64,000 nt of DNA, taken from the sequence record PZ229304.1; one strand, given 5' to 3'. The notes under the pieces are model-generated. The model ran no database searches and had not been told where the DNA came from. It saw only the letters and a list, made by a program, of their open reading frames with translations. Origin of the DNA: a phage. Both the position numbers and the translations under genes were made by a program. Shown piece by piece: positions 17,934-62,277 of the stretch. How positions within the stretch are numbered: position 1 is the stretch's first letter; each line of letters opens with the position of its first letter.

Positions 17934-18266
17934 TTAAAAAAATGGTTGACGTTCCTCACCTGGTAGCGTAATATTCATCTTGTCGAGGGGGGCAAGGCAC
18001 AACGACAATAAACAATAGGCGGGTGCAATGCATGACGGGCAAAGGTGAGGATCTCCACAATCCACCGTCACAATAACATTACTTATAAAAGGTTGATAAC
18101 GATGATCAAGAAAGAAAATAGCTTGACGGTTGGAACGATTAACGCTATCATTCTCGCCGTTCCATTTTGGATTGTAGTGGCGGTTGTTATTTTCTAAAAA
18201 ATATTCTTGACAACGTTTTTTAATCTGATAAGATGTATCACATAGGGCGGCAATAGTGCCGCTCAT
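17934..18266 (-). CDS. hypothetical Cys-rich protein (uncertain)
   Basis: 110-aa ORF with ATG start, but its 5' end overlaps the promoter/hairpin of the first plus-strand cassette. Confidence 0.2.
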   Translation of the reverse strand: MSGTIAALCDTSYQIKKRCQEYFLENNNRHYNPKWNGENDSVNRSNRQAIFFLDHRYQPFISNVIVTVDCGDPHLCPSCIAPAYCLLSLCLAPLDKMNITLPGEERQPFF

Positions 18267-18286
18267 AACAGAAGAGAGAAATAATC

Positions 18287-18559
18287 ATGGCATCATATAG
18301 CGCATCAATGATCGTAGCTGGCATCACTGGTAAACCTATGCGCGGTGGCGGATCTTTCGCTAACATCAATATTGATGGACGTTTATCCCTGGACGCAGCG
18401 ATCACCGTGGCACGGGAAACGTTTAAAAAAGAATGTAATTTCAATAAACAAGATTATCTCGGTTTCGCTATTGAAAAAACCGCGCGATTTGTGGATTATA
18501 AAAGCCCGAAAATGATCGACACTACACTAAAAGCGCAAGATGTAGCGTTTTTGCTTTAA
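18287..18559 (+). CDS. hypothetical protein (cassette gene)
   Basis: Preceded by TTGACA promoter, CACATAGGGCGGCA..TGCCGCT hairpin and AGAGAG RBS. Confidence 0.5.
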   Translation: MASYSASMIVAGITGKPMRGGGSFANINIDGRLSLDAAITVARETFKKECNFNKQDYLGFAIEKTARFVDYKSPKMIDTTLKAQDVAFLL

Positions 18560-18562
18560 GGC

Positions 18563-18622
18563 TTGACACTGAAAAATACTTTGTTAATATATACCACATA
18601 AGGCGGGGAAATGGTTTCCCGC
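18563..18622 (+). promoter_or_regulatory. sigma70-type promoter (TTGACA-N16-TAATAT) plus 5' leader hairpin GGCGGGGAAATGGTTTCCCGCC
   Basis: Read directly; same architecture recurs through the array. Confidence 0.6.
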
Positions 18623-18645
18623 CAAATCAAAGAAAGGGTAATGCA

Positions 18646-19008
18646 ATGAGCAAGCAAATCAATACTATCATGTTTAATCTGGTATCTTTCCGCGATGACG
18701 TGAAAAACCTTTCGCGTGGTGCAGTGGATGCACGGATCGAAAGCTATCGCACACAGATCGCAACGTTACCGCTGAAACGTGATCAACATGCCGCTAATAT
18801 GATGCTTGATGCTATGATTAAAAAGATGATTCAATGTGATCTTACTCTGGCTTATGAATATGCTGGCGATCTCTTTGTAACGTATAACAAGCCCGTTCCA
18901 GGTATGAGCACCACGGAAGAATTGCATGCCTTAAATCTGCGACAAGATGCATGGGATAACATGCGCCGTGTTATGGTATGGGTAGAAAGCGGCAAAATTT
19001 ACGCGTAA
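18646..19008 (+). CDS. hypothetical protein (cassette gene)
   Basis: 120-aa track ORF downstream of promoter-hairpin unit. Confidence 0.5.
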   Translation: MSKQINTIMFNLVSFRDDVKNLSRGAVDARIESYRTQIATLPLKRDQHAANMMLDAMIKKMIQCDLTLAYEYAGDLFVTYNKPVPGMSTTEELHALNLRQDAWDNMRRVMVWVESGKIYA

Positions 19009-19083
19009 AGATTGACATTACACGAAAACCTGATAAGCTATCTTAAAGCGGGAATAGTTCCCGCTTACATAGGATAAAACTTT

Positions 19084-19230
19084 ATGAAACAATATGTAAT
19101 GAGTATTCATACCAAAAACGGCGCTACTGTTACGACTCCGGCACGGTTTGCACTTGTAAACCGTTGCAAGAGACTAAAACGAGAGCTAAAAAATAACCGT
19201 GCAACCGGTTTTAAACGCTGGGGAGGATAA
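19084..19230 (+). CDS. small basic protein (48 aa)
   Basis: Own translation MKQYVMSIHTKNGATVTTPARFALVNRCKRLKRELKNNRATGFKRWGG; preceded by TTGACA promoter and GCGGGAATAGTTCCCGC hairpin. Confidence 0.3.
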   Translation: MKQYVMSIHTKNGATVTTPARFALVNRCKRLKRELKNNRATGFKRWGG

Positions 19231-19232
19231 TC

Positions 19233-19493
19233 TTGTTTTTTCTAAAAGTTTTTGATAATGTGATCGCTTTTGAACATGCTACGACGTTCGACCTGGCGAG
19301 ATACGCTATCAGGTTTAAAGATAATGTTTATCCCCGTGCTGGCGGCGGTTACACTATTTTTAATCATCGTAACGCTCAATTAACGGATATAACTAATCCA
19401 GGCCCTGGAGTGTATCGCATAGGCTGGCTACCGTCAAAAGACGCGGCAAGCATGTTTAAGGTATGTAAACTACTAACAGAAGAGGCGAACTAA
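19233..19493 (+). CDS. hypothetical protein
   Basis: 86-aa track ORF, TTG start just after GGAGGA. Confidence 0.35.
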   Translation: MFFLKVFDNVIAFEHATTFDLARYAIRFKDNVYPRAGGGYTIFNHRNAQLTDITNPGPGVYRIGWLPSKDAASMFKVCKLLTEEAN

Positions 19494-19494
19494 C

Positions 19495-20049
19495 ATGGGG
19501 CGTGAGTATGTGATCCAGTCCTGGGTAAAGCATGACGCTAATGATCCGCGCATAATACCAGATGACATGATCGATCACATGGTAGGGTATAGCGGGGAGC
19601 AGATAGGAAATCGAGCGGCAAAGAGCAACGGCAACACAAAGGCGCGATCCGTTCGCCCTGGTTGGCTGGCAAATGGTAACGCTGACATTGCAAGCGCCGC
19701 AGATCCAAGCGATGACGCTAAAAATAATCCCTTGTACAGCATTGATCCGGCTTTTAAGGTGTTGGAAGAGTATCCCGCTAAATTAGCCGCACTAGATAAG
19801 GCATACGAAGAAAAGCGCATGGCATGGACTGTATACAACACCGCTAAAATGGTGCTAGATGCAAAATTGATTAAAGCCCAGGAGAAGATCAATAAACTTG
19901 TTACCATAGCGCAAGAGGAAGACCAGGACGACCAGGAGGAAGAGGAAGAAATCATGCCTATCCTGGAAGAGGAAGAGATCCAGCCATACATGCCGACGGA
20001 AGAGGAAAAAAGACAAGCCCTAAAAAATTACGAAAATTGTATTGTGTAA
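19495..20049 (+). CDS. hypothetical protein with acidic C-terminus
   Basis: 184-aa track ORF; the longer antisense frame 19575-19991 is treated as a shadow. Confidence 0.45.
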   Translation: MGREYVIQSWVKHDANDPRIIPDDMIDHMVGYSGEQIGNRAAKSNGNTKARSVRPGWLANGNADIASAADPSDDAKNNPLYSIDPAFKVLEEYPAKLAALDKAYEEKRMAWTVYNTAKMVLDAKLIKAQEKINKLVTIAQEEDQDDQEEEEEIMPILEEEEIQPYMPTEEEKRQALKNYENCIV

Positions 20050-20195
20050 GGCTTGACATATGCAAACAAGCCCCGTAATATGTACCACATAAAGCGGGGC
20101 AACGCCCCATAAGGTGAAATAAAAAATCACTTGACACCTGAAATCAGTAAGCTATAATGCTTATATAGATTGAAACATTACTAAGGAATAAAAGC

Positions 20196-20375
20196 ATGGC
20201 TATTATTGCAAAGACTGAGATCGTAGGTTTAGATTCTATCATCCTGGCATATGAGGAAGCTATAGAAATGTATGTGGTTTCCTATGGTGATTATATCCGT
20301 GAATATAAATCTATTGATCTAGCTTTTGAATGTTATATTCGCCAGGTAAATAAAGCATACGATGATTATCGTTAA
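20196..20375 (+). CDS. small hypothetical protein (59 aa)
   Basis: Own translation; TTGACA-N17-TATAAT promoter at 20131-20160 and AAGGAA RBS. Confidence 0.3.
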   Translation: MAIIAKTEIVGLDSIILAYEEAIEMYVVSYGDYIREYKSIDLAFECYIRQVNKAYDDYR

Positions 20376-20470
20376 AAGTTTTAGTCTTGTGCTATTGACA
20401 ACGAACGATAGTACAAGCATAATAACTTTTATCGGGAATACTCCTAACTAATCAAAAGAGATTAAAGACT

Positions 20471-20836
20471 ATGGCTAAAAATATCAATGTTTCTGCTTAT
20501 GCTACCCTGGCTAACACTGCTAAAATTGAACTATCCAGCATTGAAGCGGTACATATTAGCGCCCGTCGCTGGTTTCAAAAGTCTTATGGTAATACTTATT
20601 TCTCTTTGATGGTTGACGTTGAGATCGGCGGTAAACTGATTGAAGTCGTTAACGTTCCGTTTCAATATGGCTACGGGGATCATTTTGATACCGTTGCCCT
20701 AGAAGAGTTTAGCAAGGTTATCAACCTGGAAGGTAAAGACTTTTCAAATTATGCTTACCTTTCCCGCTTTTGCCGTGATAATGGGATCGCTGTATACAGT
20801 CATGCAAGCGATGTTAAACGTAAAAAAGATTTATAA
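20471..20836 (+). CDS. hypothetical protein (cassette gene)
   Basis: 121-aa track ORF with TTGACA promoter at about 20394. Confidence 0.5.
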   Translation: MAKNINVSAYATLANTAKIELSSIEAVHISARRWFQKSYGNTYFSLMVDVEIGGKLIEVVNVPFQYGYGDHFDTVALEEFSKVINLEGKDFSNYAYLSRFCRDNGIAVYSHASDVKRKKDL

Positions 20837-20924
20837 AAAGCATTGACAGCACGAATAAAAAGCATATAATACTTATATCGAGAGCGGGAATAGTTCCCGC
20901 CTCACTGAAAAAGAGATTAACATC

Positions 20925-21164
20925 ATGGCTAAATCTAAAATGTACAACGGTCACAAAAATAAAACTCATTGGAATGTAAGCCTTTGGATCAACAATGATG
21001 AAGGTTTTTATAATCTTGCACGTGAATTTATTGCAGCTAACACCAATAAGAATGACGCAGCGCGTGATATGATGCTATTTCTTGAAAGTATGGATCAAGA
21101 TAAAACGCCAGACGGTTACAAGTTCAGTAAAACTGCAATCCGCGCCGCGATGGTTGGAATGTAA
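20925..21164 (+). CDS. hypothetical protein (cassette gene)
   Basis: 79-aa track ORF; TTGACA-N16-TATAAT and GCGGGAATAGTTCCCGCC hairpin upstream. Confidence 0.5.
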   Translation: MAKSKMYNGHKNKTHWNVSLWINNDEGFYNLAREFIAANTNKNDAARDMMLFLESMDQDKTPDGYKFSKTAIRAAMVGM

Positions 21165-21259
21165 AGGAGACATAAAAATGAAACATCGTTCGACCTATCT
21201 CACAAAACGTTTTAGCTTAGATCATAAATTGGGCTATTACGGAAGAAATAGAAAATAAT

Positions 21260-21319
21260 TTGACAACGTTTTAAATTAGTGTAATATATATCACATAGGG
21301 CGGGAAATGGTTTCCCGCC
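21260..21319 (+). promoter_or_regulatory. sigma70-type promoter (TTGACA-N17-TAATAT) plus 5' leader hairpin GGCGGGAAATGGTTTCCCGCC
   Basis: Read directly. Confidence 0.6.
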
Positions 21320-21341
21320 AAATCAAAGAAAGGTTATCATT

Positions 21342-21569
21342 ATGGCTATCGTTATTGTTCGCGTATCCGGTACGGTTGGAATCTCTCAGGTAGTAGCAGT
21401 TATCACAGAGAAGAAAGGAGATGATCTTCACTCCTCCTTGAATAGCTGGGCGGTCGCTAATTTTGGGCAATGGTCGAGCGTTGAGTACATCGAATCCTAC
21501 CAGGTGCCAACGATTAGCCTGACCGATCTGAATGTTGATCGCTTGTTGTGCCTGGATCAATTAAATTAA
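21342..21569 (+). CDS. hypothetical protein (cassette gene)
   Basis: 75-aa track ORF. Confidence 0.45.
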   Translation: MAIVIVRVSGTVGISQVVAVITEKKGDDLHSSLNSWAVANFGQWSSVEYIESYQVPTISLTDLNVDRLLCLDQLN

Positions 21570-21655
21570 AAATAATATTGACAAGATAACTAAAATCAGT
21601 AAAATGTAATGCATAGGGCGGCACTATTGCCGCCCTAGTGAGAGAGATTATCAAA

Positions 21656-21871
21656 ATGGCTAATATCCGCACACTGTTAAAAAATGCAAGTCAAGTTTTA
21701 TTTTCAGATGACGAATATTTTAATAAAGATATTACAGGCGTGAAAAATTTAAAAGACGTGAAGGATGTTATCGGTATCCGTGGATCTTTACGTAAAGGTG
21801 ACATATACGGTAACAAGGTGCAGTATAAACTGTCAAAAGATTATGATTTTACTTTGACAATTATTTCATAA
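21656..21871 (+). CDS. hypothetical protein (cassette gene)
   Basis: Trimmed to ATG at 21656 (MANIRTLLKN) because the track start lies inside the leader hairpin. Confidence 0.45.
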   Translation: MANIRTLLKNASQVLFSDDEYFNKDITGVKNLKDVKDVIGIRGSLRKGDIYGNKVQYKLSKDYDFTLTIIS

Positions 21872-21962
21872 AACTACTTGCAAACCTGGTAAAATAAAGT
21901 AAACTATATTCATTAAGGCGGTGGAATAGCCAACCGCCTAACAAAGAGAAGAGGAAAACATC

Positions 21963-22133
21963 ATGATCACTTTCGCTACCCGTGAAGCCGCTCGCAACGT
22001 TGCACGTAAAGTTAACGCCGCCAACCTGGGCGCTACGCTTAAAGCCCCGGTAAAAGATGAATCAGGAAAATGGATCTTCCCTGGTCTGCGTCACGCTGAT
22101 AAGCTGGGAACATTAACGTTAAAAAATAAATAA
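21963..22133 (+). CDS. small hypothetical protein (56 aa)
   Basis: Own translation MITFATREAARNVARKVNAANLG..; promoter, hairpin and AGAGAAGAGGA RBS upstream. Confidence 0.4.
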   Translation: MITFATREAARNVARKVNAANLGATLKAPVKDESGKWIFPGLRHADKLGTLTLKNK

Positions 22134-22140
22134 TATTCGC

Positions 22141-22199
22141 TTGACAGTAGCATCATTTATAAGTAAAGTAACAACAACGGCGGGAAATGGTTTCCCGCC
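22141..22199 (+). promoter_or_regulatory. sigma70-type promoter (TTGACA-N17-TAAAGT) plus leader hairpin GGCGGGAAATGGTTTCCCGCC
   Basis: Read directly. Confidence 0.6.
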
Positions 22200-22219
22200 A
22201 TCAATAAAGAGATAAGATT

Positions 22220-22579
22220 ATGAAATCAGCAAAAGCAATTAAAACTTACATTTTGTCGGCTATTTCTTTTGATGGTACTACAACCGAAAAAGAAAAAATC
22301 ACCGAACTGATGCGCCGTTTTAATTCTGAATACTGGTATCCCGATAATCAAAAACGTTACAATTATAACGTGATCAAGGCGATAGCCTCATGGTTACAAG
22401 GTTTACCGTCAGAAATCAATATTGCTTTTGATTATAACGAGATCGATCACTTGTTAATTGAATGGAAGTACATAAAAGAAACAAGCAAAGAAACAACCGT
22501 TACCCGTGAGCGGGAAAATTATTGGTTATATATTGCAAGCATGATCGTAATCCTGGCAAAACAGCATAACGTGGCGTAA
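22220..22579 (+). CDS. hypothetical protein (cassette gene)
   Basis: 119-aa track ORF. Confidence 0.5.
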   Translation: MKSAKAIKTYILSAISFDGTTTEKEKITELMRRFNSEYWYPDNQKRYNYNVIKAIASWLQGLPSEINIAFDYNEIDHLLIEWKYIKETSKETTVTRERENYWLYIASMIVILAKQHNVA

Positions 22580-22594
22580 TTAAGAGGAAGAAAC

Positions 22595-22732
22595 ATGAAC
22601 GCATCACAGCAGATCGAAAAATTCAACCGCAGCAAGGCGCGTAAAGATTGGAACGAAGAGATCACCAAAAAAGGTGACAAGCGGAACAAAACAAAGAGAG
22701 ATCGCAGCACAAAAAGATACTGGAACGAATAA
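22595..22732 (+). CDS. small basic protein (45 aa)
   Basis: Own translation; AAGAGGAAG RBS; terminator immediately after. Confidence 0.3.
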   Translation: MNASQQIEKFNRSKARKDWNEEITKKGDKRNKTKRDRSTKRYWNE

Positions 22733-22735
22733 CAA

Positions 22736-22762
22736 AAAAGGGCGCAATAAGCGCCCTTTTAG
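22736..22762 (+). terminator. intrinsic terminator
   Basis: AGGGCGCAATAAGCGCCCT hairpin plus T-run. Confidence 0.6.
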
Positions 22763-22850
22763 CTTATATAGAGGCTTGTTACCCATAGGCAATGGTAACG
22801 CCAGGGCAAGCCTATAAATCAACGTTAGACGGCTTTACAGGAGCTTTAAA

Positions 22851-23033
22851 ATGAGATTAGAAGAAATAAGCAAGGCACTAGCCCAGGGGCAAAGGTTAAA
22901 CGCCCGTTATCGTGATCAATATGGTTTCATAACTAGCGGCGTGATCCTGGGGATTGAAGACAATAAGATTTTTATTGACACGTTGAAAAACGTTGTATAT
23001 AGTGACAATATAATCTCAATAAAACATATATGA
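22851..23033 (+). CDS. hypothetical protein
   Basis: 60-aa track ORF. Confidence 0.35.
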   Translation: MRLEEISKALAQGQRLNARYRDQYGFITSGVILGIEDNKIFIDTLKNVVYSDNIISIKHI

Positions 23034-23041
23034 GGCAAGAA

Positions 23042-23443
23042 ATGAAAAAATTATTGATCGCTGGTTTACTCTCTTTTGGCATGGTTGGAACATCTAGCGC
23101 GGCGATATCCTCCACAGTAGCAGAATTAAGCGCCGTTGATGCAATGGAAAACGTCATGCTTATTAACAATGCGATCCCCGATGAAATCATGGAGGATTCA
23201 CACATGATCGCTTATGGTGCTGTTACACAACTAACGGCAAAAATAGATAAATCTATTGTTAATGGCTTAAATGAAGATGTACCATGTGAAATTATTACAA
23301 GTGTGCTGACTACTCAAAATTTTACGCCGTGGTTAAAAAGTATTCAAAAAGTACACAGTACAGCCGCAGATCGTAGCAATGAAAAACTAGTGTCAGCACT
23401 TGCAACGTATACCCTGGCAAAATGCACCGAGATAAAAGATTGA
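23042..23443 (+). CDS. secreted protein with signal peptide
   Basis: Trimmed to ATG 23042; MKKLLIAGLLSFGMVGTSSAA is a typical Sec signal. Confidence 0.5.
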   Translation: MKKLLIAGLLSFGMVGTSSAAISSTVAELSAVDAMENVMLINNAIPDEIMEDSHMIAYGAVTQLTAKIDKSIVNGLNEDVPCEIITSVLTTQNFTPWLKSIQKVHSTAADRSNEKLVSALATYTLAKCTEIKD

Positions 23444-23490
23444 CAACATAGAAAGCACGTTATAAGATACACACAACAAAGGAGAACTAC

Positions 23491-23787
23491 ATGAACGGCA
23501 TAGCTAAAACGTTTTTTCTTTTTTCTGGTGTAAATGATCCATCAATAAAAGTCGATAGTGTAAAAGAAAACAATACTATCACAGCTAAATTGTATCAAGA
23601 TGAAACAAATAACGTGCTAATCATTAATCTTAAAGAAATAACAAAAGGTTATTATGCTATTGCTTACCATGCGATTTATCATGCTGGTACTAGTGAGGAA
23701 GTGCAAACAAGCAACAACGAAAGCGCGGCGCTACCTGGTGATCTGGTGCTGGGCGTTATCAGTTTAATTGTCAATGATTTTTTTTAA
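23491..23787 (+). CDS. hypothetical protein
   Basis: 98-aa track ORF with TTGACA promoter at about 23443. Confidence 0.45.
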   Translation: MNGIAKTFFLFSGVNDPSIKVDSVKENNTITAKLYQDETNNVLIINLKEITKGYYAIAYHAIYHAGTSEEVQTSNNESAALPGDLVLGVISLIVNDFF

Positions 23788-24123
23788 GGAGTAAAACCAT
23801 GCCCTATTTACATTTATTTTTCGGTATCTTATTGACGGGATCTTTTTTCTTCTGTATGCTTGTTTCTATTGTAAACCACGTTTTAAGACATTAAGGAAAC
23901 AGCATGAAAATTATTCCCGTACAATATAGCGTAATAAATCCAGCATACGAGGAAGGAAGGAAAACAAGCATGGCTTTATGTTGTATTACTACTATAGCCA
24001 TGTTGTTATACATTGTGTTTTAATAGGTTTTATAGTTGTACGCTTTAAAGGCTTGACAATTTTTTGTTATGCTTTAAACTATATCTTGAAAACGGCAAAG
24101 GCCGCAAACAAAAGGGTAAAATT

Positions 24124-24447
24124 ATGAAATCTGTGATCGGTGTTTATTTGGATAACTCTGATTTTTTCTATCATCGCGCTCGTTTCCTTGATGCGATTGA
24201 AATGATAGAATCAGGCTTTAAAGAGTATCGCCTTGCACATGATGACCTGGAAGCATTACAGGGCAATAGTGTTTTTACATTGCAAGCGAAAGCACTATGT
24301 AAAAGCCGGATCGACATTGCGAGCAAAAAGATAGAACGCGGCATGTCCTGGTTGCGCACCGCAGAAATCAACATGGGGCAATGGCACGGCGAAAACTTAG
24401 AAAATAAACATACTTTTGTCAATGTAGAAAATATTGAAGATTATTGA
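24124..24447 (+). CDS. hypothetical protein
   Basis: Trimmed to ATG 24124 (MKSVIGVYLD). Confidence 0.45.
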   Translation: MKSVIGVYLDNSDFFYHRARFLDAIEMIESGFKEYRLAHDDLEALQGNSVFTLQAKALCKSRIDIASKKIERGMSWLRTAEINMGQWHGENLENKHTFVNVENIEDY

Positions 24448-24510
24448 TTGACAGCACACCTGATAAGTAGTATATTGTATCTCATAGAGCGGGGAAATGG
24501 TTTCCCCGCC
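24448..24510 (+). promoter_or_regulatory. sigma70-type promoter (TTGACA-N17-TATATT) plus leader hairpin GCGGGGAAATGGTTTCCCCGC
   Basis: Hairpin carries a compensatory G:C pair relative to the common GGCGGGAAA/TTTCCCGCC form. Confidence 0.6.
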
Positions 24511-24529
24511 TTAAAAGAAGAGATAAGCT

Positions 24530-24814
24530 ATGAAGATCACAAAAGCACTTTCCAACTATGCAGCACGTCGCGGCTTATGTTTAACCGTTGAAAACCTGGG
24601 GAAAGAAGATTTTTTGTGCTTTTGGGAGCTTGAGAATGATAATGAGTGGATCTTCTCTTATTCTATCTGCGAAGATCAAAACGGTTGTTTATTAACCTGG
24701 CGCGGTAATATCTATCTACCGGAAGAAATCAAAGAAGAATTGCCAGGCACGATCATGACTGAGAAACAGCTTAAGGAAGTGATCAATTTTGTAGGGCAAA
24801 ACATTAAAAAATAA
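24530..24814 (+). CDS. hypothetical protein (cassette gene)
   Basis: 94-aa track ORF. Confidence 0.5.
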   Translation: MKITKALSNYAARRGLCLTVENLGKEDFLCFWELENDNEWIFSYSICEDQNGCLLTWRGNIYLPEEIKEELPGTIMTEKQLKEVINFVGQNIKK

Positions 24815-24815
24815 T

Positions 24816-24875
24816 TTGACACCAGGCAAACAACGTAGTAAAGTTTATCACATAGGGCGGGAAATGGTTTCCCGC
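24816..24875 (+). promoter_or_regulatory. sigma70-type promoter (TTGACA-N17-TAAAGT) plus leader hairpin
   Basis: Read directly. Confidence 0.55.
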
Positions 24876-24897
24876 TCACAACAAAAGAGAACAAATC

Positions 24898-25068
24898 ATG
24901 ATCCCGACTATGTTTTACGTATCGCGCAAAGGTCACAATATTTTTTGGTCTGAAGATTTAAATGAAGCCATGACGTTTGCCCGTGATCGTGTTGCTATCG
25001 GTGGCGTTAACATTACTGTAACCGATGAAAACGGCATTGAATACTATAACGGCGACGATGAAGAGTAA
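24898..25068 (+). CDS. small hypothetical protein (56 aa)
   Basis: Own translation MIPTMFYVSRKGHNIFWSEDLNEAMTFARDRV.. Confidence 0.35.
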   Translation: MIPTMFYVSRKGHNIFWSEDLNEAMTFARDRVAIGGVNITVTDENGIEYYNGDDEE

Positions 25069-25115
25069 TTAATGAGGCGGGGGAGTATTCCCCGCCGTCA
25101 ATAAAGAGGTAAATC

Positions 25116-25385
25116 ATGAAAATATCATTTGACGTTGCAATCAAGGCCATCGAATCCGGTTACACCCTGGTAAAAGATGATAAGGCTAAAATAGTGCATC
25201 ATGTTAACAAGGAAACAGGCGAAAGCATGATCACATATAAAGCCGCCTACTTTCTCCAATCAGTAGCAGATCCGCGCGTACAGCGCCAGGTCACGGCGGC
25301 TATTGCTAAAAAATTATGTGCTTTACAGGGCACAAGTTTTAACGAGATCCCGCCGTGTTTTGACTGGTCGAGCTTGAAAAAATAG
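25116..25385 (+). CDS. hypothetical protein (cassette gene)
   Basis: 89-aa track ORF; hairpin variant GGCGGGGGAGTATTCCCCGCC upstream. Confidence 0.5.
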   Translation: MKISFDVAIKAIESGYTLVKDDKAKIVHHVNKETGESMITYKAAYFLQSVADPRVQRQVTAAIAKKLCALQGTSFNEIPPCFDWSSLKK

Positions 25386-25581
25386 TTTGACAATATGCGG
25401 TTATCTGGTAAAGTGTACCACGTAGGGCGGGGCAATAAGGCAACGCCCACTAATGAGGGTAAAATCATGTTAGAGAAAATTTTCACGGTTGTAGTAGTGG
25501 GCCTGGCGTTATCGGTTGGATTGGTTGCAACTATGGCTAACATGATCCTATCTTCCCACGGTATTGGATAAGGTGAATCAA

Positions 25582-25815
25582 ATGATCACGAATAAGACAG
25601 GTAAAACAGAATTTTTACGCGGCTTGCAAATAGGTAAACCTGAAATCTGGCATTGCACTAAAACACCACGTGACGAAATGAAAGATTTCACCGCTACTTT
25701 ACAACGTGTTAAAATATCTATCACACAGAAAAAAGCCTTGTTAGTAGTAGAAAACGAGATCCCGCAAACCAGATCGGGAATGATTTACATTTTACCCGTA
25801 ACGGTCACGGCGTAG
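25582..25815 (+). CDS. hypothetical protein
   Basis: Trimmed to ATG 25582; a 34-aa membrane peptide ORF lies just upstream (25468-25572). Confidence 0.4.
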   Translation: MITNKTGKTEFLRGLQIGKPEIWHCTKTPRDEMKDFTATLQRVKISITQKKALLVVENEIPQTRSGMIYILPVTVTA

Positions 25816-25943
25816 GCTTTTGGGATCGCCCTGAAATATACACTACTAACACCGCCAACCGCCTAACAAATGCGGCTAAATTAATGCCATCGGTGCATGC
25901 TTACATTGGTGAAGATAATTTGATTTATATTGAATAAAAAGTA

Positions 25944-26003
25944 TTGACACCGATCCCCCAATATGTTACTATTTACCACGTAGGCGGGAAATGGTTTCCC
26001 GCC
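25944..26003 (+). promoter_or_regulatory. sigma70-type promoter (TTGACA-N17-TACTAT) plus leader hairpin GGCGGGAAATGGTTTCCCGCC
   Basis: Read directly. Confidence 0.6.
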
Positions 26004-26026
26004 AGGTAATCAAAAAGGTAAATACT

Positions 26027-26416
26027 ATGCGCAACCTGGTTTCTGTTTCTAACGTTGAAAAATTCCAATCTTTACAGGGTATCGTTAACAACGTAGCGCC
26101 TTTTTTAGTCAATGGCTTGATTGCAAAGATGAAGAATAAACATCATGCCGCATGGTCTGCTTACTGCTTTGACAATGATGAAAAAGCGGCTGAAATGATG
26201 TTAAATATGCTGTTAGACAGTGTAGAATCATCTTTACCGGAAAACATCGCAGAAGAGATCACCTATCGTTATAATATGGCGATCACTTACCAGGAGGTTG
26301 CGCAATTTAATATGATGGACGATGACGAACAACAGGATCAGGAAATATTCTGGGAGTATGCGGATCGTCAATCGGCTTTTGATGAAAAGTTAGCGATGTA
26401 TTATAACGAATATTAA
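26027..26416 (+). CDS. hypothetical acidic protein
   Basis: Trimmed to ATG 26027 because the track start lies in the hairpin. Confidence 0.5.
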   Translation: MRNLVSVSNVEKFQSLQGIVNNVAPFLVNGLIAKMKNKHHAAWSAYCFDNDEKAAEMMLNMLLDSVESSLPENIAEEITYRYNMAITYQEVAQFNMMDDDEQQDQEIFWEYADRQSAFDEKLAMYYNEY

Positions 26417-26430
26417 TACACGGTAAAAGA

Positions 26431-26457
26431 AAGGGGCGCACTAAGCGCCCTTTTTTG
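26431..26457 (+). terminator. intrinsic terminator
   Basis: GGGGCGCACTAAGCGCCC hairpin plus TTTTTT. Confidence 0.65.
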
Positions 26458-26878
26458 TATTCTTTTTTCACAATGGAAGCGACACGTAAAGAATAGGCGT
26501 AAAGGTGGCGTAAAACCATCTAAAACCGACTGTAACCGCTTAAACAAGGTAGGAATGATTAATCACCTTACCAGGATGAAAAAGCTGTTATAAAGCTATA
26601 TAGGGCGTTTAAAGCACATAGGAAATAATTTGCTTTTTATCTTGCCTTTTATTCTGCTTTTGATTATTATTATGGAACGGGCGGCACCTGGGAACAGGGG
26701 AAGATAATCACCGGACGACCCCGCTATATATTGATAGCTAACATCTATCAAACAACAAAACATCAAAGGAATAAACTATCAAATCTTTACAATCTCATCT
26801 ATTGACCGGTAAATCATAGCAGTTTAATATTGTTTTTAGAGGGTAGAACATACCCAAAACGAAAACAGGAAAAAGAAA

Positions 26879-27115
26879 ATGAAAGAAGTCATGATCCTCA
26901 AAAAATCACCTATTTTACGTGGTGGCTTTATCGCTTACTCTGATGATCTGTTAATTGCAACGGTTGCAAAAATACTAAAATCAGAAGAGGATAGTAAAAA
27001 CGGCGTTTATCGTATCTGTTTCACCCGTGGGAAATTGCAAGGCAAGATCGCCTATGCTTTTGATTTACAAGATGTAAATGATAAAATCTGCGCTGTTATT
27101 GATTATGCAAAATAA
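26879..27115 (+). CDS. hypothetical protein
   Basis: 78-aa track ORF; TTGACC..TAATAT promoter about 26790. Confidence 0.45.
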   Translation: MKEVMILKKSPILRGGFIAYSDDLLIATVAKILKSEEDSKNGVYRICFTRGKLQGKIAYAFDLQDVNDKICAVIDYAK

Positions 27116-27202
27116 TTAACTTTCTTATTGACACCGGATCACGCTTACATTATTATTTATCACGTAGGGCAAATCATTTTAAACGGTAAACGAGGAATCA
27201 CC

Positions 27203-27586
27203 ATGAGCAATATCATCAACCTGGCGGCTACTGTAAACGGTAAAGATTTTAACGGCGCTGTAGATCGTGATCCTATGTGGTGCTTATCCGTGTTTAAAGG
27301 CGATCTGGTTGAAGTTAGAACAACCGAAGGTTATAGCGACGATTATAAATGCGAGATCCATTTACACAACTGGTACACGGGTAAAACTTATGCGCTGAAT
27401 CATGCGTTTATCGGCAAGGTTGAATATAGAGAAATGATCGACGAAGAAACGGGGCAAGATTTTAGCGATTATGTTTATATCCGTTCCGAGACATTAGCAG
27501 AACGTTTGATCGAGAAAATGAAAGCAAAAAATAAAATTAATTTAGCTCATTGGATTGATATAACAAACGATCCAGCTTATAAGTAA
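27203..27586 (+). CDS. hypothetical protein
   Basis: Trimmed to ATG 27203 (AGGAA RBS); TTGACA promoter at about 27131. Confidence 0.5.
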   Translation: MSNIINLAATVNGKDFNGAVDRDPMWCLSVFKGDLVEVRTTEGYSDDYKCEIHLHNWYTGKTYALNHAFIGKVEYREMIDEETGQDFSDYVYIRSETLAERLIEKMKAKNKINLAHWIDITNDPAYK

Positions 27587-27600
27587 ATGACACTTCACAC

Positions 27601-27629
27601 CAGGGCGCACAAAGCGCCCTTTCTTTTTA
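27601..27629 (+). terminator. intrinsic terminator
   Basis: AGGGCGCACAAAGCGCCCT hairpin plus TTCTTTTT. Confidence 0.65.
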
Positions 27630-27833
27630 CCTAAATAAAGATGATAGCTTTTACCTATCAAAAACGTTCACCGAAAAAAGTGAATAGATCGCGGTATCGA
27701 GCTAATCAAGGAGCAGATGAACAACCATACCATGAAGATCATAAGGCGCTTACAGCGTGTTTTAGACCGCTTATTTTTAATTTCTTCATGCAACTATTTG
27801 GCAAAAACAGCCTTTTTCTTGTCTTTCCTCTTA

Positions 27834-28440: not shown

Positions 28441-28766
28441 AGCTAATGTTTAGAACATTGGCTATAATATAAGCTAAATCATAAGCTATGCAATAATAAA
28501 CATGGTGAATAATGACATTGATGATCATAATGCGCCACCTTCCAGGGGGCGCTATGTGAACACAAAGAAATCTTTCTTGTCAAGAAAATATTACTACTAT
28601 TGCGCAAAATTATTTATATCTGAATAGATGATTTTTTATGCTATTGCCCCCTTGATTATTACTATTTGTTGCCCTAACTATTGTCATTTGTTGAGCCTAC
28701 TTTCTTAAAAGCGCAATAAATCAGAATTATCTTGATTTTTAGTCGGTTTTATAGTACAGAAAGTAT

Positions 28767-28785
28767 GCAAATGATAATCATTATC
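28767..28785. promoter_or_regulatory. near-consensus Fur-box-like site GCAAATGATAATCATTATC
   Basis: 17/19 identity to GATAATGATAATCATTATC by hand. Confidence 0.5.
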
Positions 28786-28951
28786 AGCTATCTTCCACGG
28801 GTGGCACTATTTCACGCCAGATCATTTCATTTGGCAAGGTGTATATAGATGTTTAGAAATGCCAAGCCATTGATTTACTTAGAATTTATCTGTTTTGTTG
28901 TGAGTAGTGCCTTTCTTGCTCAGAAAATAATCAAAAGTCTTATAAGTCATT

Positions 28952-28983
28952 GAATGATAATGCAAATGATAATTATTCTCATT
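28952..28983. promoter_or_regulatory. degenerate Fur-box-like repeats
   Basis: GAATGATAATGCAAATGATAATTATTCTCATT. Confidence 0.35.
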
Positions 28984-29428
28984 GATATTTGAGGGGGACG
29001 GTCGGCAGAAATCGGGGGGCGCTGAAAATCGCGTTAAGCACCTCTCGCAAGCGAGCAGTATTTTGCGGCAAGTTATTGATATTATTGACTTTACGCTTAA
29101 GAAAAGGGGGCGTGTCGAAATAAATCGGGTATACCGGAAAATTTTTGTGGCATAGATATTTATTTGTCTATATTATGTACAAAGGGGTGTGTTAAAAATA
29201 ATAGGTATATATAGAATAATTGATAGGGAAATCCTATACTAAATCCTTCATTAATGATGTTCCTATGTTGCTGTTCTTGTAATAGATGAAAAGACGCTAT
29301 ATGATGTGTGGCATGAAACGTAAACTTATAAGATGCAAATAATGCTTGCATTGAATAGAAATGTCTATACACTGTGTTTCATAAGATATGCAATATCGCG
29401 CATAACAAACTACTAATGAGAGGTGTAA

Positions 29429-62180: not shown

Positions 62181-62277
62181 AAATTCTCCTTCTCTCTTTT
62201 AAGGAGAGCATAGCTCTCCTAACGTTAGCCTATACTACACGAATCTCAATTAAAAGTCAACTATAATTTTAAGTTGA

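Follow-up and report, generated by a model that had tools for sequence, protein, structure and literature searches.

A tandem array of promoter-early stem-loop-type cassettes in front of small genes in a phage outside the T4 group

The locus described here, positions 17946 to 27620 of a 64,000-nucleotide (nt) stretch of phage DNA (sequence record PZ229304.1; this whole stretch is hereafter called the window), raises the question of why a GC-rich hairpin should recur behind one promoter after another in front of small open reading frames (ORFs). Promoter-early stem-loops (PeSLs) are known from the T4-like phages RB49/phi1, PST, and nt-1 (Arbiol et al. 2010, PMC2839356; Comeau et al. 2014, PMC4122927). 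In RB49/phi1, they combine near-consensus sigma70 promoters, a G-tract/C-tract stem-loop in any of five positional subclasses, AT-rich upstream DNA, and a Shine-Dalgarno (SD) sequence and ATG at the 3' end, and PeSLs cluster in hyperplastic regions beside ORFans, where they mediate modular shuffling (PMC2839356, PMC4122927). In the array, we found promoters that are sigma70-like by consensus, stem-loops, AT-rich upstream DNA together with an SD sequence and ATG, a hyperplastic location, and rearrangements bounded by the cassettes. The array is thus well supported as a set of PeSL-type early cassettes from lineages other than T4, in which the stem-loop has shifted to the 5' untranslated region (UTR), and not as a new kind of element. 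A megablast search with 18200-27630 matched 289 phage records, the closest being Justusliebigvirus phages of the Stephanstirmvirinae (ESCO8, J-01, Paula, alia, and phi92; 95 to 98% identity); to judge from these matches, the source is a phi92-like coliphage of Justusliebigvirus.

To describe the cassettes, we read the sequence and tabulated every promoter. In order, a cassette consists of TTGAC(A), a 16/17-nt spacer, TAnnnT, about 7 nt, the motif CA-Y-R-TAG, a GC-rich hairpin, an A-rich leader with an AAAGAG-type SD sequence, and ATG, just as an earlier sequence-only reading of this DNA had it; from the -35 box to ATG the span is 75 to 88 nt, and a cassette is about 85 bp long. That reading had also placed about 20 cassettes, each with its own promoter, between 18200 and 27630. 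There are 22 sigma70-type promoters, all on the + strand (17946 to 27204), all upstream of ORFs, and matching the consensus at 9 to 12 of 12 positions; however, several ORFs have no promoter of their own, the array begins at 17946, and three true terminators divide it (Table 1). Its count of at least 12 hairpins held: 13 are strong, with predicted energies of -12 to -20 kcal/mol, and 3 or 4 more are weak or degenerate, and all of the stem variants that it quoted are present. One hairpin (25076-25096) has no promoter, and one promoter with a hairpin (20053-20130) has no gene and is probably the scar of a cassette-to-cassette deletion.

The consensus 21-mer GGCGGGAAATGGTTTCCCGCC, with up to 3 mismatches allowed, occurs five times on the + strand compared to 0.00 times in shuffles, and the pattern TTGACA-N25-30-CAYRTAG was found six times where 0.06 is expected. 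Within the window, perfect GC stems of at least 7 bp that belong to the array family are confined to 19.0 to 26.0 kb; the remaining stems of this length are of the terminator type, with A and T runs, and the sole exception is a further cassette at 62.2 kb. Matches to our model R1 are likewise confined to the array, both in the window and in 98.6 kb of phi92, except for two weaker ones. Among 57 distinct promoter-proximal hairpins from 20 loci, the stem starts 9 to 14 nt past the -10 box, with a mode of 10 to 11. Transcription from sigma70 promoters typically starts 7 to 8 nt past the -10 box, with a pyrimidine favored at -1 and a purine at +1; thus, the conserved Y-R of CAYRTAG most likely represents -1/+1. 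The predicted start would most likely be the R of this motif, which would leave 1 to 5 unpaired nt ahead of the stem and place the hairpin at about +2 to +27.

Fourteen predicted leaders each form a single 5' hairpin (-7 to -20 kcal/mol, z scores of -2.8 to -5.1) and leave the SD sequence and AUG open. Behind the stem, the leader is A-rich and unstructured with a weak SD sequence, and the SD sequence and ATG follow the stem end at 18 to 25 nt. The 20 nt upstream of the -35 box average 77% AT, versus 63% for the window. The phi92 annotation lists mostly 3-nt ribosome-binding-site (RBS) motifs for the array genes and AGGAG for most other genes; the translation-initiation regions of the early ORFans seem to be of another style.

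The sequence-only reading took compensatory changes in the stems as a sign of selection on structure, and the comparisons support this, since unrelated stems occupy the same position and stems change more slowly than loops, spacers, and third codon positions. In comparisons with close relatives, the -35 boxes had the lowest substitution density (0.5%), followed by stems (3.3%), leaders (4.7%), -10 boxes (7%), third codon positions (7.3%), spacers (12%), and loops (15%). Changes had occurred in 12 stem pairs; pairing was kept in nine of these, in four cases by changes on both sides. Outside the array, the same architecture recurs with unrelated stems at 62.2 kb of the window (AGGAGAGC/GCTCTCCT), upstream of phi92 gp182 (GCGGAGGA/TCCTCCGC), and in Asteriusvirus A4. 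Orthologues of the 62.2-kb cassette were chosen by synteny alone (thyX, then the orthologue of the 136-amino-acid [aa] ORF) in KP2025, ESCO5, phiWec181, and 05F01, and they have a hairpin at the same place with the stems GGAGAGC, GGGAGGA, GGGGGA, and GAGAGG. Alignment of the five orthologues with MAFFT, analyzed with RNAalifold, gave a 7-pair consensus hairpin in which four pairs have compensatory changes. The 5' arms of these hairpins are SD-like, purine-rich, and covarying. Downstream hairpins are G-first in 65 of 72 distinct cases, while promoter-embedded ones (described below) show no bias (19 versus 17). We rejected this polarity as strand evidence because the 5' arm of a palindrome is identical on both strands; it separates the downstream from the promoter-embedded class, not RNA from DNA.

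The best-documented property of the cassettes, which the sequence-only reading overlooked, is their role as recombination modules. The array lies in a hyperplastic early-gene region whose gene content differs between relatives; ORF 20196-20375, for instance, is missing from phi92, muut, and SD2. When the window was aligned with ESCO8, Paula, phi92, muut, SD2, and phAPEC8, 19 of 31 distinct breakpoints fell within cassettes, which make up 17% of the region (P about 6e-8), and most of the others lay no more than 10 nt from a cassette edge. Short duplicated homology at 20865-20879, 25377-25437, and 27154-27168 is the signature of cassette-to-cassette exchange. At gene 24898, promoter and leader are conserved but two hairpin cores occur, GAAATGGTTTC in some phages and CAATAGTG in ESCO8, muut, and one further relative; for gene 25467, an unusual hairpin and its leader are kept behind three different promoters in relatives. 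The hairpin at 21614-21637 has ACTATT as its apical 6 nt where six relatives have the exact reverse complement, AATAGT; this is a small loop inversion between the inverted-repeat arms. Comparison of orthologous cassettes indicates that hairpin cores, promoters, and genes recombine independently. Because the cassettes share sequence, they serve as homologous-recombination joints at which ORFans are deleted, inserted, or replaced.

Beyond the window, a search with a single cassette matched 142 phage records at 431 places, and every record was rV5-like or phi92-like. A pattern scan of IMG/VR gave 38 matches; the true ones occurred only in 137- to 153-kb rV5/phi92-like contigs, and about 25 were discarded as coding-sequence coincidences in contigs of about 40 kb. 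The downstream hairpin also occurs, with different dominant stems, in Phapecoctavirus, Vequintavirus FV3, and Certrevirus. Certrevirus (CR8, DU_PP_I, and F2M1E) and the Klebsiella phage FBKp34 also have GC inverted repeats that overlie one of the two promoter boxes (-10 or -35) or are placed in the spacer between them (TTGAC-GGGGCC-N7-GGCCCC-ATAAT), often paired with a second hairpin at about +4. Cassettes of the jumbo phage Asteriusvirus A4 have the form TTGCAA-17-TATAAT-GTTTTACATCRAG-hairpin. The cassette and gene at 20395 in the window are of this Asteriusvirus type: the protein is 71 to 80% identical in aa sequence to those of A4 and SP27, and the promoter regions can be aligned (the A4 counterpart is 1114-1857 of the compared stretch). 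On sequence grounds, 20395-20836 points to gene-plus-cassette transfer between unrelated phage families. Among the matching records, several numbered MG0656xx and labeled "Campylobacter phage" (C. jejuni; about 146 to 150 kb) are near-identical to coliphages of the rV5/phi92-like group, and their host label looks doubtful.

What would the hairpin do in such a cassette? We tentatively favor, at a little below an even chance, the reading that it is the 5'-terminal stem-loop of each mRNA and acts in stability or insulation. The near-consensus sigma70 promoter would be read by unmodified host RNA polymerase, and the transcript would begin at the purine of CAYRTAG, directly ahead of the hairpin. 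Secondary structure at the 5' end stabilizes E. coli mRNAs because RppH and RNase E require single-stranded 5' ends (reviewed in PMC3997798), and the hairpin would most likely hinder 5'-end-dependent decay by these two enzymes. In read-through or processed polycistronic RNA, it would form an intercistronic barrier, a role that fits the promoter-less copy at 25076. It would also keep the RBS region clear of upstream pairing and so permit context-independent expression of the ORFan. A role in the cassette's own transcript is favored because the position of the hairpin is fixed relative to the predicted start, because unrelated stems occupy that same position in conserved loci and in four lineages, because no U tract follows the stem and the leader behind it is open, and because Certrevirus adds a downstream hairpin on top of its promoter-embedded ones. 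The few unpaired nt predicted before the stem and the open remainder of the leader are compatible with the 5'-end stabilizer that the sequence-only reading had put forward as one possibility.

Several points weigh against this mRNA-based reading. G.T mismatches are tolerated in sense RNA only and A.C mismatches in the antisense strand only, and inside the stems we counted 7 G.T and 10 A.C, so that selection on sense RNA is unsupported. Folding energy shows a slight asymmetry, with the + strand more stable in 66 cases and the complement in 45; neither this test nor the mismatch test separates RNA from DNA action. Sister genera have the repeat within the spacer or covering the -10 box, which indicates that the hairpin as such is not tied to the mRNA 5' end. 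The 5'-stabilizer idea is weakened by these embedded hairpins and by the lack of a sense-strand G.U excess. Five promoters (17946, 20131, 22975, 23440, and 27128) have no hairpin at all. Loss of RppH affects only about 10% of E. coli mRNAs (PMC3997798), and an overhang of 2 to 5 unpaired nt may still let RppH in. A loop-anchored alignment of 41 hairpins gave 80% paired cells versus 63% when shuffled, with nine of 10 pairs changed on both sides, but this count is circular and we do not rely on it, since the hairpins were picked for pairing. The enrichment of breakpoints in cassettes is not decisive by itself, because any model predicts that breakpoints survive mainly in intergenic DNA. In the literature that we searched, we found no mapped transcription starts or half-lives for phages of this group.

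The alternative that survives best, although we consider it unlikely, is that the hairpin acts on transcription coming in from the preceding cassette, as an attenuator, a terminator, or a barrier at the 3' end, and that its presence in the downstream mRNA is incidental. It could prevent expression from piling up along strong tandem promoters, or it could stop 3' exonucleases and leave the upstream mRNA with a protective 3' hairpin. The PeSL authors read their stem-loops as attenuators or terminators, and an RB49 PeSL stem-loop lowered lacZ expression as strongly as rrnB T1 (PMC2839356). The layout of the array suits this idea: most genes have no terminator between them, and the next promoter starts right past the preceding stop codon; the hairpin at 25076 is purely intercistronic; and strong hairpins are absent from the array's first promoter (17946) and from the first promoters after true terminators (22975 and 26802). 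The embedded hairpins of Certrevirus and FBKp34, being inside the promoter, are present in upstream transcripts only. The cassette hairpins resemble intrinsic terminators in being GC-rich and intergenic. However, the 10 nt after the hairpin contain 0 to 2 T residues in 15 of 15 cases, so that none has a U tract and the intrinsic-terminator pattern is not fitted, whereas the three genuine terminators of the array, used where transcription units end, all have T runs; a terminator scan flagged two of the 15, both on the - strand. Moreover, the hairpin keeps a constant distance from the -10 box but not from the upstream stop codon, and Certrevirus cassettes that already have a promoter-embedded hairpin add a second one at about +4.

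It is quite unlikely that the hairpin, or the corresponding DNA palindrome, binds a phage-encoded regulator (an RNA-binding repressor or stabilizer, or a dimeric DNA repressor) that switches the early class together. A site at +2 to +27 would suit a roadblock, and one 8 to 12 nt upstream of the SD sequence would suit translational control; the commonest variants are strongly conserved in sequence within one genome, many variants in Justusliebigvirus and Phapecoctavirus have the apical sequence AAT(R)GT in common, and each genus has its own dominant variant, as expected from coevolution of site and protein. Against this, stem sequence, stem length (5 to 10 bp), and loop length (3 to 8 nt) all vary within one genome, some stems are wholly unrelated to the rest (GGGTA/TACCC at 26841-26855; AGGAGAGC/GCTCTCCT), loops evolve fastest, and one loop is inverted. 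No candidate protein was identified. The shared operator for one palindrome-binding protein suggested by the sequence-only reading is therefore disfavored: the conserved half-sites at fixed spacing expected of a dimeric operator were found neither within the array nor between orthologues.

We regard it as similarly improbable that the inverted repeat has no role in expression and persists because it is recombinogenic, through hairpins or cruciforms, template switching, or mini-circles, and thereby promotes spread and homogenization of the cassette as a selfish mobile regulatory module. Breakpoints do lie in or at the edge of hairpins (22187, 26002, and 21621-21890), hairpin cores have been exchanged between identical flanks and one loop has been inverted, wobble pairs show no strand bias, and the position of the repeat is free across genera; in RB49, mini-circle junctions were found in or beside the loop (PMC2839356). 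However, conserved, syntenic, nonplastic loci (thyX-nrdA and gp182) keep the hairpin in place with covarying stems, the spacing to the -10 box is strict, the G-first orientation is restricted to the downstream class, and homology of promoter and leader alone would suffice for recombination.

Very unlikely, in our view, is a role for the GC-rich initial transcribed sequence and its nascent hairpin in tuning RNA polymerase, whether in promoter escape, sigma release, or a hairpin-stabilized pause near +35 to +40 for loading of the first ribosome. The position is fixed within the first 27 nt of the transcript, the SD sequence and AUG lie 18 to 25 nt past the stem, and the 5' arm resembles the initial transcribed sequence of T5 N25, which escapes well, in being rich in purines; however, no conserved pause-site sequence follows the hairpin, and post-stem leaders differ widely. 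Finally, it is highly improbable that the conserved 20-mer is a phage-specific promoter or an N4-like hairpin promoter, as a repeated, oriented motif just upstream of many genes and its annotation in GenBank (NC_020079) might suggest, since a complete sigma70 promoter always precedes it at a fixed distance, the stem covaries instead of keeping its sequence, a start downstream of the motif would leave a leader of less than 20 nt, and the authors of the rV5 paper, who found neither an RNA polymerase nor a sigma factor of the phage, propose that all of its promoters are of the host type (PMC3606486); the N4-type variant was dropped because of the full sigma70 promoter and the lack of a reported phage polymerase.

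The same motif already stands in databases under two labels. In phAPEC8 (NC_020079), its 5' half is marked "putative promoter determined with PHIRE," and in Paula (LR865361) it is marked "terminator"; these are literally the same sequences as the array motif (RTAGGGCGGCAATGGTGCCG). Neither label fits, because the motif follows a full sigma70 promoter, shows covariation as a stem, and in most copies lacks a U tract whichever strand is read. The 33 promoters listed in the rV5 genome paper come with no mention of a hairpin (PMC3606486), and no description of the motif turned up when we searched the literature for its sequence, for phAPEC8 together with PHIRE, and for transcriptomic work on the subfamilies concerned. 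The present reading corrects these two conflicting labels, adds no fewer than three groups of large coliphages to the T4-like phages in which PeSLs were known, and defines a compact natural part of about 85 bp that comprises a strong promoter, a 5' hairpin, and an open leader. Promoter-hairpin cassettes would then be a general device to organize and shuffle host-takeover and accessory ORFans. If the hairpin protects or insulates early mRNAs, this would explain how dozens of unrelated small genes are reliably expressed right after infection and would yield design rules for phage engineering and synthetic expression cassettes. A more speculative idea, on balance an unlikely one, is that the cassettes are a shared "plug format" through which unrelated, large virulent phages of enterobacteria (T4-like, rV5-like, phi92-like, and jumbo Asteriusvirus phages) trade ready-to-express ORFans, the transcribed 5' hairpin giving each import the same protected, context-independent mRNA start; the Asteriusvirus-style ORFan with its cassette at 20395-20836 supports it. 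On this idea, the hairpin might also spare phage early messages from a phage-stimulated RNase E purge of host mRNA; the rV5 genome paper reports an Srd homologue (PMC3606486).

The coordinates of the array and of the related cassette at 62.2 kb are collected in Table 1. In phi92, the counterpart of the array is gp225-gp248, at 138.0 to 147.2 kb of a 148.6-kb linear genome, and its end lies about 1.1 kb from the right direct terminal repeat. The 343-bp phi92 direct terminal repeat aligns to 28694-29036 of the window at 98% identity; thus, the array forms the last approximately 10 kb before the genome end, with transcription pointing toward that end. With the repeat inside it, the window covers the physical genome ends, suggesting a permuted or circular assembly in which the repeat was collapsed, and the AT-rich, gene-free stretch at 27.6 to 29.3 kb is the terminal region. 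The coding share of the array region is 69%, owing to the approximately 85 bp of regulatory DNA between most genes. Nine of 10 array proteins tested against PHROG match only families of unknown function and one (25116-25385) matches none; with Pfam, one array protein is DUF7249 and the last is Phage_30_8. ARAGORN found no tRNA in the window, and an Rfam scan of the whole window gave nothing at the gathering threshold, the best subthreshold matches in a permissive scan being unrelated. The array is more GC-rich than the rest of the window, as the sequence-only reading had estimated by eye (39.4% versus 36.8%, the highest stretch in the window), but by just 2.6 points, and we rejected the foreign origin that had been drawn from this composition; yet the region is hyperplastic, and at least one gene with its cassette is common to Asteriusvirus.

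Table 1. Coordinates of the cassettes, other promoters, hairpins, and terminators in the window
Feature	Position	Strand	Hairpin	ORF	Remarks
Whole array	17946..27620	+			22 sigma70-type promoters, about 26 small ORFs, three intrinsic terminators
Cassette	18207..18286	+	strong, 18245-18264, GGGCGGCA ATAG TGCCGCTC	18287-18559	z -3.96
Cassette	18563..18645	+	strong, 18602-18623, GGCGGGGAA ATGG TTTCCCGCC	18646-19008	
Cassette	19012..19083	+	strong, 19046-19066, AAGCGGGAA TAG TTCCCGCTT	19084-19230	
ORFs without own promoter	19233-19493, 19495-20049	+			downstream of ORF 19084-19230, driven from cassette 19012..19083
Orphan cassette	20053..20130	+	weak, 20096-20108, GGGGC AAC GCCCC	none	promoter, CACATAA, hairpin, AAGGTG; next promoter directly at 20131
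Perfect-consensus promoter	20131..20195	+	none	20196-20375	TTGACA-16-TATAAT
Asteriusvirus-type cassette	20395..20470	+	degenerate, from 20433	20471-20836	spacer GATAGTAC, CATAAT, TTTTATC
Cassette	20843..20924	+	strong, 20882-20902, core GCGGGAA TAG TTCCCGC	20925-21164	
Cassette	21260..21341	+	strong, 21299-21319, GGCGGGAAA TGG TTTCCCGCC	21342-21569	
Cassette	21578..21655	+	strong, 21614-21637, TAGGGCGGCA CTAT TGCCGCCCTA	21656-21871	
Cassette	21878..21962	+	strong, 21917-21938, GGCGGTGG AATAG CCAACCGCC	21963-22133	-35 TTGCAA; internal loop in hairpin
Cassette	22141..22219	+	strong, 22179-22199, GGCGGGAAA TGG TTTCCCGCC	22220-22579, 22595-22732	
Bidirectional intrinsic terminator	22736..22760	.			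AAAAGGGCGC AATAA GCGCCCTTTT
Sub-module	22975..24123	+	none strong; weak, from 24093		promoters 22975, 23440, 24053; strong SD sequences
Cassette	24448..24529	+	strong, 24489-24509, GCGGGGAAA TGG TTTCCCCGC	24530-24814	
Cassette	24816..24897	+	strong, 24855-24877, GGGCGGGAAA TGG TTTCCCGCTC	24898-25068	
Promoter-less hairpin	25076..25096	+	strong, GGCGGGGGA GTA TTCCCCGCC		between ORFs 24898-25068 and 25116-25385
Cassette	25387..25466	+	strong, 25425-25448, GGGCG..GGCAATAAGGCAA..CGCCC	25467-25571	
Cassette	25944..26026	+	strong, 25983-26003, GGCGGGAAA TGG TTTCCCGCC	26027-26416	
Intrinsic terminator	26434..26456	+			GGGCGC ACTAA GCGCCC TTTTTT
Cassette	26802..26878	+	weak, 26841-26855, GGGTA GAACA TACCC	26879-27115	-35 TTGACC; z -3.82
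Promoter with CACGTAG	27128..27202	+	none	27203-27586	Pfam Phage_30_8
Intrinsic terminator	27602..27620	+			array end
Outside-array cassette	62181..62260	-	62220-62202, AGGAGAGC TAT GCTCTCCT	62180-61770	TTGACT-17-TAGTAT, 11 nt, hairpin, then TAAAAGAGAGAAGGAG
136-aa ORF driven by 62.2-kb cassette	62180-61770	-			flanked by thyX-like and nrdA-like genes

Some further features of the array are recorded here. The stretch at 22851-24023, in the sub-module, includes an ORF (23030/23042-23443) with a signal-peptide-like N terminus and several very small hydrophobic ORFs. An AU-rich stop region precedes the hairpin at 25076-25096, and the next ORF encodes 89 aa. At 25764-25771, within ORF 25564-25815, the window is without about 236 bp that are present in ESCO8, Paula, and muut; this breakpoint lies outside the cassettes, and the ORF may be a fusion or a remnant. 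Downstream of the terminator at 26434-26456, about 345 nt (26457-26801) are noncoding up to the promoter that follows; no ORF was called there, and Rfam gave no match.

Among known 5'-terminal stem-loops, the T7 gene 10 leader, with its 5' hairpin, is a precedent for a stabilizer. The ompA and papA 5' UTRs also resemble the array leaders, with a stable hairpin a few nt from the 5' end, an accessible RBS, and abundant messages (PMC3997798). The present leaders differ from all three in that their 5' end is a predicted one and in that the element is repeated more than 13 times in a recombining cassette. REP/BIME palindromes, which act in selective RNA processing and stabilization (PMC10667835), are likewise repeated, GC-rich, extragenic palindromes between cistrons and possible exonuclease stops, but they are host elements located 3' of genes, unlinked to promoters, and at no fixed distance from a -10 box. 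The lambda nut site (boxA/boxB) and the rrn antitermination leaders share a small hairpin soon after an early promoter, and some array copies continue with the faintly boxA-like GCTCACAACA; however, the commonest variant continues with AAATCAAAG, there is one copy per gene and not per operon, and no Rfam family matched, and we dropped this reading because the resemblance is not conserved among copies. The closest known system is the PeSL. Both elements have a near-consensus sigma70 early promoter with AT-rich upstream DNA, an adjacent G-tract/C-tract stem-loop, and a 3' SD sequence with the start of a small ORFan; both are densely arrayed in tandem within hyperplastic regions and are associated with DNA that has been inserted, deleted, or replaced between close relatives; and Certrevirus and FBKp34 show the same subclasses, in which the hairpin is found downstream, inside the spacer, or overlying one of the promoter boxes (-10 or -35). 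In contrast to the PeSLs of T4-like phages, the cassettes occur in lineages unrelated to T4 (Stephanstirmvirinae, Vequintavirinae, and Asteriusvirus), and the hairpins of the window have no U tract, are accompanied by a conserved CAYRTAG start motif, and always lie downstream of the predicted start, in the 5' UTR of their own cassette instead of forming a terminator before or inside the promoter.

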